From a virus (taxonomy: Duplodnaviria > Heunggongvirae > Uroviricota > Caudoviricetes): a DNA stretch of 22,538 bases. Positions 21,337-21,510 of this stretch are shown piece after piece (position 1 is the first letter of the stretch; every line of letters begins with the position of its first letter). Under the pieces are notes generated by a model. It searched no databases. It saw only the letters and a program-made list of their open reading frames with translations, and was not told the origin of the DNA. Location of the stretch: IMG/VR virus record IMGVR_UViG_2667527827_000002, one strand, 5' to 3'. Made by a program: the position numbers and the translations under genes.

Positions 21337-21510
21337 TCATGCTGCTTTGCGACGACGAAGCTTACCCTGCTGCTCTTTACCAGAGACAGTAGCGTGAGTG
21401 AACGCATTAGGAGCAGCCTTCATCAGAACTTCAACAGCAGCACCCATACCTGCGAATGCTTTCATTGTGTCGAACTTAACCTGTGGCTTGGTTGCTTTTT
21501 GATCTTCCAT
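21337..21510 (-). CDS. Hypothetical small basic protein (57 aa), third gene of the right-end minus-strand operon
   Basis: Below the 60-aa cut-off of the ORF track; found by eye. ATG 21508-21510 is preceded by AGGAG with 6-nt spacing; TGA at 21337-21339. Translation MEDQKATKPQVKFDTMKAFAGMGAAVEVLMKAAPNAFTHATVSGKEQQGKLRRRKAA. Codon choice (ggt, gct, gtt, cgt, aaa) looks like that of well-expressed genes. Confidence 0.5.
   Translation of the reverse strand: MEDQKATKPQVKFDTMKAFAGMGAAVEVLMKAAPNAFTHATVSGKEQQGKLRRRKAA

Follow-up and report, generated by a model that had tools for sequence, protein, structure and literature searches.

The subject of this work is a 57-codon open reading frame (ORF) on the minus strand of a 22,538-nucleotide stretch of Caudoviricetes DNA (IMG/VR record IMGVR_UViG_2667527827_000002), hereafter the window, where it occupies positions 21337..21510 downstream of a gene pair resembling the Panacea (PanAT) toxin-antitoxin systems. 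Comparison of related loci gives strong reason to consider that the native context of this small gene is not the Panacea pair but a mobile two-gene cassette, composed of a GNAT-fold gene, a structured spacer of 93-260 nucleotides (nt) and a gene of 53-61 codons with its own terminator. The best explanation of the evidence as a whole is that the small protein was left stranded when its GNAT cassette was replaced and is, in addition, a labile inhibitor of the GNAT enzyme, a combined reading whose chances we judge to be about even. Its two parts carry different weight: the evolutionary conclusions, that is, partnership with the GNAT cassette and replacement by the Panacea pair, are strongly supported by the sequence comparisons, and the antidote mechanism is a reasoned guess, with chances between somewhat doubtful and evenly balanced.

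The ORF comprises 57 codons and a stop codon, starts with ATG (translation MEDQKATKPQVKFDTMKAFAGMGAAVEVLMKAAPNAFTHATVSGKEQQGKLRRRKAA) and is present as an earlier note on this DNA, made from its letters, had described it. Since its frame is open for only five codons upstream, between stop and stop, the ATG at 21510 is the sole plausible start. The AGGAG Shine-Dalgarno sequence, which had been proposed to stand at ideal spacing, is located at 21521..21517 (minus strand), 6 nt from the ATG, and a purine-rich motif of this kind precedes the start codon in all 15 aligned sequences (14 lineages and the window) despite sequence turnover. On the other side, 19 nt 3' of the stop codon, a bidirectional intrinsic terminator at 21293..21318 (both strands) consists of an 11-bp G+C-rich hairpin with a TTTA loop and T runs on either side, and it is common to the convergent PrtN-type gene, as the predicted bidirectional hairpin implied. 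An intrinsic terminator follows the gene in 14 of the 15 aligned sequences (13 of 14 lineages and the window), with stems that vary; the exception is Photorhabdus, whose hairpin shows no clear U tract. The encoded protein is basic, with 11 Lys and Arg residues against 5 Asp and Glu (net charge +6, eight lysines, isoelectric point 10.2), and the Lys/Arg-rich C-terminus pointed out before corresponds to the tail GKLRRRKAA, ending in ...RRRKAA.

Codon choice had been described as that of a highly expressed gene and as different from the neighbouring genes, and our measurements agree. Using the E. coli weights of Sharp and Li (1987), the codon adaptation index (CAI) of the small ORF is 0.562, the highest among the 26 ORFs of the window; the other 25 range from 0.15 to 0.45, and the two genes upstream give 0.26 and 0.23. 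When its codons were redrawn synonymously according to the usage of the window, the CAI was 0.371 +/- 0.061 and 64 of 20000 draws reached the observed value; none of the 5079 windows of 57 codons taken from the other genes attained it. The high index is kept in the Enterobacteriaceae orthologues (0.48-0.60, versus 0.24-0.29 for the GNAT gene upstream of them). The codon bias of the small ORF is real and goes beyond chance.

The gene had been called unannotated, which public records contradict: it is RefSeq WP_000390072.1 ('hypothetical protein'), appears as mEp460_024 and Lys8385Vzw_30 in phage records, and matches the profile of PHROG 2741 with an E-value of 8.4e-36, residues 1-57 aligning to positions 1-57 of 57. 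A 'hypothetical protein' feature covers it in every entry listed in our search of the 562 E. coli genomes that carry it. Searching 5.8 billion proteins returned 48 clusters, and a profile search among 1.84 billion representatives gave 15 proteins at E <= 0.001, 13 of them short family members and two of them long proteins that match on short repeated stretches only. Intact members have 53-61 residues and come from Enterobacterales only; the table of the larger search also holds truncated (42-51 residues) and over-extended (63-89 residues) gene calls. The conserved core reads FDT..AF..MGAAVEVLMKAAP..F, followed by E.QG[KR].R, and nearly all members end in [A/V]A after basic residues. No match to the small protein was found in Pfam, NCBIfam or PADLOC, its profile retrieved nothing from the PDB at E <= 10, no second copy of the gene was found in the window, and literature searches with the protein accessions found nothing.

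The conservation check that the earlier note had proposed comes out in favor of a coding gene. The frame is conserved across Enterobacterales, the ratio of nonsynonymous to synonymous change (dN/dS) against divergent orthologues is 0.10-0.22, and the variable columns are distributed 24/22/43 over the three codon positions; by these comparisons the small ORF is under purifying selection. A chance ORF that is not a gene, for which only the small size can be adduced, has a negligible probability in view of this conservation and dN/dS, the PHROG 2741 match, the conserved CAI and the retention of Shine-Dalgarno sequence and terminator. Altogether, the sequence evidence describes a bona fide, probably well-expressed phage protein gene. 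An antisense ORF on the plus strand (21394..21570) was considered and discarded, as it contains stops in 5 of 9 lineages. In Salmonella (loci L019-L024) a difference of one nucleotide joins an upstream frame of 32 codons (MSPIGSTDWHKLAEQASF...), 96 nt upstream, to the small ORF and creates an ORF of 89 residues. In E. coli O157 these codons are not in frame with the small ORF; the fusion is probably incidental and could mislead gene callers.

The context of the gene was examined in complete E. coli genomes, 562 of which, out of 5426, carry the small ORF. Two locus types account for all of them: in 204 genomes the ORF follows the genes for PanA and a 139-residue protein, as in the window, and in the remaining 358, O157:H7 included, a GNAT-fold gene of about 178 codons and a spacer of 196 nt are found upstream instead. 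A GNAT gene without the small gene was never seen. The loci that we collected for comparison number 105: 65 belong to the GNAT type and 40 to the PanA type, the latter exclusively in E. coli or its phages. The two types are 97.5% identical from the 3' end of the PrtN-type gene to window position 21523 and are then unrelated until attR-proximal sequence, which places the recombination junction at 21523..21524, just 5' of the Shine-Dalgarno sequence (GGAGTTTTCTATG). The shared side thus holds the 3' end of the PrtN-type gene, the terminator, the small ORF and its Shine-Dalgarno sequence, and the exchanged segments measure 1208 bp (promoter region of PanA, PanA and the 139-residue gene) and 803 bp (GNAT gene and leader). 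We considered the possibility that the Panacea pair is a divergent homologue of the GNAT gene and ruled it out, as neither PanA nor the 139-residue protein shows similarity to the GNAT protein; no GNAT homologue was found anywhere in the window. In O157:H7 both the GNAT gene and the small gene are intact within a badly decayed prophage remnant. This comparison strongly suggests that the small gene is inherited backbone and that the Panacea pair is exchangeable cargo that displaced the GNAT cassette, and it traces the GNAT-less state to one recent event confined to E. coli.

Beyond E. coli the association with the GNAT gene is constant. Every non-Panacea locus encodes a protein of 176-184 residues (204 in some gene calls) 93-260 nt upstream of the small gene. 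Starting from the small protein, all 65 such loci have the GNAT gene in this position, and they come from E. coli, Salmonella, Enterobacter, Pseudescherichia, Franconibacter and Hafnia. The reverse search, starting from the GNAT protein, found the small gene downstream in six of six lineages (Photorhabdus, Edwardsiella, Serratia, Brenneria, Plesiomonas and Enterobacteriaceae 4M9), and in the last of these the annotators had missed it. The pair occupies different genome positions: between attP and xis, between Q and the holin gene, immediately behind a cI-like repressor, within a tail or baseplate module, and at a plain chromosomal site. That the two genes are kept together in such varied places argues for functional coupling. 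The independent small protein that the earlier note had offered as a fallback is closer to the truth than its preferred module component. Two of these loci deserve description in their own right. In Brenneria (L115, 2068-3365) the cassette lies directly 3' of the cI-like repressor on the same strand, a position that is expressed in the lysogen. In Hafnia (L011-L014, 3150-4109) a RelA/SpoT-domain protein, which matches the PADLOC defence candidate PDC-S33 with an E-value of 1e-112, is encoded directly upstream of the cassette, between the Q antiterminator and the holin gene, which suggests a hotspot of defence genes.

The 178-residue partner matched no entry in Pfam, PADLOC or NCBIfam, and its PDB sequence matches, to gp41 constructs, were rejected as spurious linker matches. 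Its AlphaFold2 model is of good quality (pLDDT 87, pTM 0.85), and a Foldseek comparison of this model with the PDB, the sole method that names the family, returned the GNAT superfamily with an E-value of about 1e-6 and a probability of 1.00. Among the matches are AtaT, TacT3 and KacT bound to C-terminal peptides of their antitoxins; SpeG, RimI and other non-toxin GNATs rank equally high. In the partner alignment a Y-x-x-x-G-F motif has an invariant Tyr. On the strength of the predicted structure we firmly assign a GNAT fold to the upstream partner. The genomic linkage and the conserved, catalytic-type Tyr, together with the eight lysines of the small protein, would also suit a small protein that serves the GNAT enzyme as substrate, cofactor or activator instead of inhibiting it, such as a Lys-rich peptide that becomes acetylated or a specificity subunit. 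Such a role would leave unexplained both the degron-like C-terminus and the finding that the GNAT gene never stands alone while the small gene does, and we consider it improbable.

These observations bear on the claim that the small ORF is the third gene of a Panacea operon and could be a third component, for example an adaptor or chaperone, of a toxin-antitoxin or defence module. As regards transcription the claim probably stands. The small ORF shares its strand with the 139-residue gene and lies 39 nt 3' of it; between them the minus strand shows neither a promoter-like nor a terminator-like site, and the only promoter-like site on that strand is upstream of PanA. For these reasons a tricistronic transcript of PanA, the 139-residue gene and the small ORF, ending at the shared hairpin, is the simplest reading. 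The upstream pair itself resembles PanAT systems, with a Panacea-domain protein, a translationally coupled 139-residue protein and the antitoxin-first order typical of them.

A part for the small protein in the Panacea module, as adaptor, chaperone or regulator, would fit this close, terminator-free arrangement and the retention of the ORF in all 204 E. coli loci of the PanA type. The comparative loci speak otherwise: a GNAT-fold gene stands upstream in 358 of the 562 E. coli genomes that carry the ORF and in all other genera examined, which makes GNAT the partner of the family, and the junction falls at the Shine-Dalgarno sequence. Homologues of the 139-residue protein (35-53% identity) accompany a Panacea/DUF4065 gene in four other phages, namely Yersinia phage YeP1, Klebsiella phage ST13-OXA48phi12.5, a Vibrio phage and Pseudomonas phage Sirocco. 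At each of these loci an unrelated gene, convergent in three of them, comes directly after the pair, and a hidden Markov model of the small protein found no relative there. PanAT systems have been described as consisting of two genes; additional third genes are restricted to a small proportion of genomes and probably do not matter generally for toxicity or neutralisation (Kurata et al., 2022; PMC8832971). The supplements of that paper do not contain the protein accessions in question. The small ORF is thus not conserved with the Panacea pair outside one E. coli prophage lineage, and the comparison of loci describes an inherited neighbour. Membership in the module is largely refuted and in our opinion very improbable, and the probable co-transcription with the Panacea pair is an accident of the exchange that does not signal shared function.

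In the GNAT-type loci the spacer between the two genes has features of its own. No intrinsic terminator was found 3' of the GNAT gene, and a promoter-like motif, TAGACG-N18-TA(G/C)GAT, is invariant in seven aligned spacers, its hexamers being present in the Serratia spacer as well. We propose that the missing terminator and this motif would give extra transcription of the downstream small gene. The spacer (4262-4460, minus strand, in locus L002, with equivalents in L015, L019, L006 and L008-L010) contains several conserved hairpins, for which RNAalifold detected little covariation, so that we describe it as a structured leader and claim nothing beyond that. One of these elements, a GAGAC-loop-GUCUC hairpin (AGAGC/GCUCU in Hafnia), stands directly before the Shine-Dalgarno sequence; the spacer is wholly missing from the window.

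The gene probably forms a separate transcription unit, with promoter-like motif, leader, Shine-Dalgarno sequence and terminator, which is also what would be expected of an autonomous moron protein that acts on a host target (a nucleic acid, the ribosome, a protease or another protein) and merely travels with the GNAT gene as one mobile unit. The very basic protein with its disordered tails, the classical moron slots at Q-holin and at the att end, and the intact state of the ORF in 204 E. coli genomes that lack the GNAT gene are compatible with it. Nevertheless, co-occurrence with the GNAT gene is complete (100%) in many genera and at five different sorts of genome position, where unrelated morons should separate more often, and the GNAT-less state amounts to one recent event confined to E. 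coli. We therefore regard an autonomous moron as an unlikely alternative.

The message of the small ORF is predicted to fold back over a long distance. In the alignment fold, codons 4-6 (CAAAAAGCA, 21501..21493, minus strand) form a 9-bp helix with an arm in the 3' untranslated region (UTR; UGCUUUUUG, 21326..21318, minus strand), located directly 5' of the terminator. Over 14 lineages 87.7% of the alignment cells pair, a share that drops to 43-58% if the partner is displaced by 1-3 columns, and the covariation of the helix is 0.199, versus 0.119 +/- 0.021 in shuffles, none of the 500 of which reach it. Compensatory changes affect two pairs: A-U to G-C in Franconibacter and A-U to U-A in 4M9, and C-G to U-A in Serratia and Photorhabdus. 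The mRNA of the whole small ORF folds better than its shuffles (z = -3.9). Synonymous divergence (pS) is very low, being 0.08 between E. coli and Salmonella where the adjacent GNAT gene has 0.65, and 0.36 between E. coli and Enterobacter where the GNAT gene has 0.94; the 22-nt 3' UTR is nearly invariant across genera. The helix would account for the near-invariance of the 3' UTR and perhaps for the very low synonymous divergence. It may either limit initiation or protect the message.

A known counterpart is the tac/fbi fold-back of hok mRNA (PMC9841398); a conserved long-distance pairing between the 5' part and a 3' UTR element beside the terminator is predicted for the small-ORF message too. 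The differences are that here the 5' arm lies inside the coding region, at codons 4-6, and not at the 5' end of the mRNA, that the peptide is basic and not hydrophobic, and that no antisense RNA is known for the small ORF. The precedent, the helix with its compensatory changes, the long structured leader of the GNAT-type loci, the favorable folding energy and the scarcity of synonymous change all invite the idea of a type I-like toxin or dual-function RNA, held inert by 5'-3' fold-back as in hok, with either the peptide or the RNA as the active species. The peptide, however, has a maximum Kyte-Doolittle mean over 19 residues of 1.01 and a hydrophobic moment of 0.2-0.3, its strong codon optimisation would be odd for a toxin, and the window, where the leader that would house an antisense gene is missing, belongs to a type in which the ORF and its strong Shine-Dalgarno sequence are tolerated in 204 genomes. 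No Rfam family reached threshold; a scan of 20500-22538 at E <= 1 gave only sub-threshold matches, driven by the terminator hairpin. We hold this alternative to be quite improbable, and its variant as a membrane toxin was discarded on hydrophobicity (the same Kyte-Doolittle maximum of 1.01, with a net charge of +6).

The reading that we prefer, an orphan antidote, can be laid out as follows. The small protein would be a labile, abundantly made and stoichiometric antitoxin-like inhibitor of the GNAT enzyme. AlphaFold2 predicts for it one central helix (residues 15-32) and disordered basic tails, and this single helix (FDT..AF..MGAAVEVLMKAAP) would dock on the enzyme, much as AtaT and TacT are bound by C-terminal peptides of their antitoxins AtaR and TacA. 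The basic-[A/V]A-COOH tail would serve as a ClpXP-type degradation tag: known C-terminal tags of ClpX include ...YALAA, ...MGVAA and RRKKAI (PMC8138137), which the ...RRRKAA terminus, and [A/V]A-COOH after basic residues in the family, resemble in sequence. Turnover would be balanced by high synthesis, owing to codon optimisation, the strong Shine-Dalgarno sequence and possibly a dedicated promoter. In the lineage integrated at dusA, a self-sufficient pair of PanA and PanT has replaced the GNAT gene and the spacer, in an exchange ending exactly at the Shine-Dalgarno sequence of the small gene, which is now probably transcribed by read-through from the Panacea operon. The window copy would then be an orphan antidote, either neutral or protective against incoming GNAT cassettes, with no role in Panacea neutralisation. 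A GNAT gene that is never alone and a small gene that is found without it form the pattern expected if the GNAT protein alone were harmful; the strict linkage of the two genes and the survival of both in the decayed O157:H7 remnant would likewise suit a labile antidote, and, if only recombinants that keep the antidote survive the PanAT exchange, the junction would spare the Shine-Dalgarno sequence.

The closest known systems are the type II toxin-antitoxin pairs of GNAT toxins and ribbon-helix-helix (RHH) antitoxins (AtaRT, TacAT, KacAT and ItaRT). The upstream partner has, in common with their toxins, the GNAT fold and a toxin-like size of about 178 residues, and structures of AtaT, TacT3 and KacT have a short helical antitoxin peptide on the toxin, which compares with a small protein that is predicted to consist of a single helix and flexible tails and may be proteolytically labile. 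In contrast to those systems, the small protein is encoded downstream and not upstream of the GNAT gene, 93-260 nt of structured spacer with a promoter-like motif separate the two genes, no RHH/DUF1778 DNA-binding domain or sequence similarity to AtaR, TacA or KacA is present, and the window copy lacks the adjacent GNAT-fold gene of its orthologous loci. The small protein thus stands outside the AtaRT/TacAT family, even if its mode of action should be alike. The arrangement also recalls orphan antitoxins and anti-addiction modules, in which an antidote gene is kept after loss of the toxin gene and comes under a foreign promoter, with the difference that the antidote function of the small protein is putative.

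Several observations weigh against the antidote mechanism. The small protein does not resemble any of the known GNAT antitoxins (no Pfam match, no RHH/DUF1778 domain and no PDB match at E <= 10), and the gene order and long spacer are unlike those of AtaRT, TacAT and KacAT. Motif A of GNAT enzymes (R/Q-x-x-G-x-G/A) reads HPLKGRM in the partner alignment, so that binding of acetyl-CoA is not assured. The promoter-like motif agrees with the consensus at only 8 of 12 positions, below the threshold of the scanner, and the AlphaFold2 model of the small protein is of modest confidence (pLDDT 65). The asymmetry between the two genes relies on a single replacement event, and low synonymous divergence could reflect recent recombination in place of selection. 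That the small protein inhibits a toxic GNAT enzyme is a guess from sequence and prediction, in which toxicity, binding and stability are all putative.

A more far-reaching version can be formulated, which we consider unlikely. The GNAT and small genes would form an undescribed phage toxin-antitoxin or abortive-infection cassette, with a ClpXP-tagged, codon-optimised, single-helix antidote made from an mRNA under the control of a structured leader and 5'-3' fold-back. The window copy would be an orphan, kept since only recombinants that retained the antidote could lose the GNAT gene, and it might protect the lysogen against phages or cassettes that carry the GNAT gene (anti-addiction).

The window represents the right end of a lambdoid prophage in dusA and carries a CI/Cro switch, yfdP/Q/R, an exonuclease gene and the PrtN-type xis; past its end follow a displaced 5' fragment of dusA and then zur, yjbJ, dinF and lexA. 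In the phage form, exemplified by mEp460, int is followed by attP, the cargo gene, the small gene and the convergent xis. In E. coli, Salmonella and Plesiomonas the small ORF is borne by a conserved phage backbone, to which the convergent PrtN-type excisionase gene (20981..21289, plus strand; PF11112, PHROG 1300) belongs. Upstream of the small ORF and outside its family unit, the 139-residue gene, a putative PanT toxin gene, occupies 21550..21969 (minus strand; PHROG 19071), and PanA, of 190 residues and with a Panacea (SocA_Panacea) domain (PF13274, E-value 2e-19), occupies 21966..22538 (minus strand), its start codon lying at the end of the window. RefSeq starts the putative PanT gene at 21936, giving 128 residues. 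The longer form is more likely because its ATG (21969) overlaps the stop codon of PanA as ATGA, residue 6 of the 139-residue form is where its match to PHROG 19071 begins, and the long form is the one chosen by the annotators of Lys8385Vzw. No PDB sequence relative of the 139-residue protein was found. In some strains (L111, 3138-4106, E. coli AR_0089; L112) IS903B is inserted in this gene or has deleted it, with PanA and the small ORF intact, which fits a harmful role for the 139-residue protein. In the late region, a 1544-residue ORF with a BigA beta-sandwich domain (PF25783; 1069-5703, minus strand) adjoins an N6/N4 DNA methylase gene (5776-6828) in a cargo slot. The reference strain used in annotation has head genes at coordinates 1069-5703 instead, which indicates that the phage of the window is mosaic.

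The operon picture of the window is corrected by these results, and toxicity-rescue experiments with PanAT would not need the small gene. For the Enterobacterales and their temperate phages, they bring to light an uncharacterised and widely mobile cassette, found in about 7% of complete E. coli genomes, O157:H7 included, that joins a GNAT-fold protein to a tiny, strongly codon-optimised protein whose tail is degron-like and whose mRNA has an unusual architecture. If the cassette is a true toxin-antitoxin or defence pair, it would represent a new type of antitoxin for GNAT toxins, and the window would show, as a clean case from nature, how an exchange of cargo can leave an antidote orphaned.

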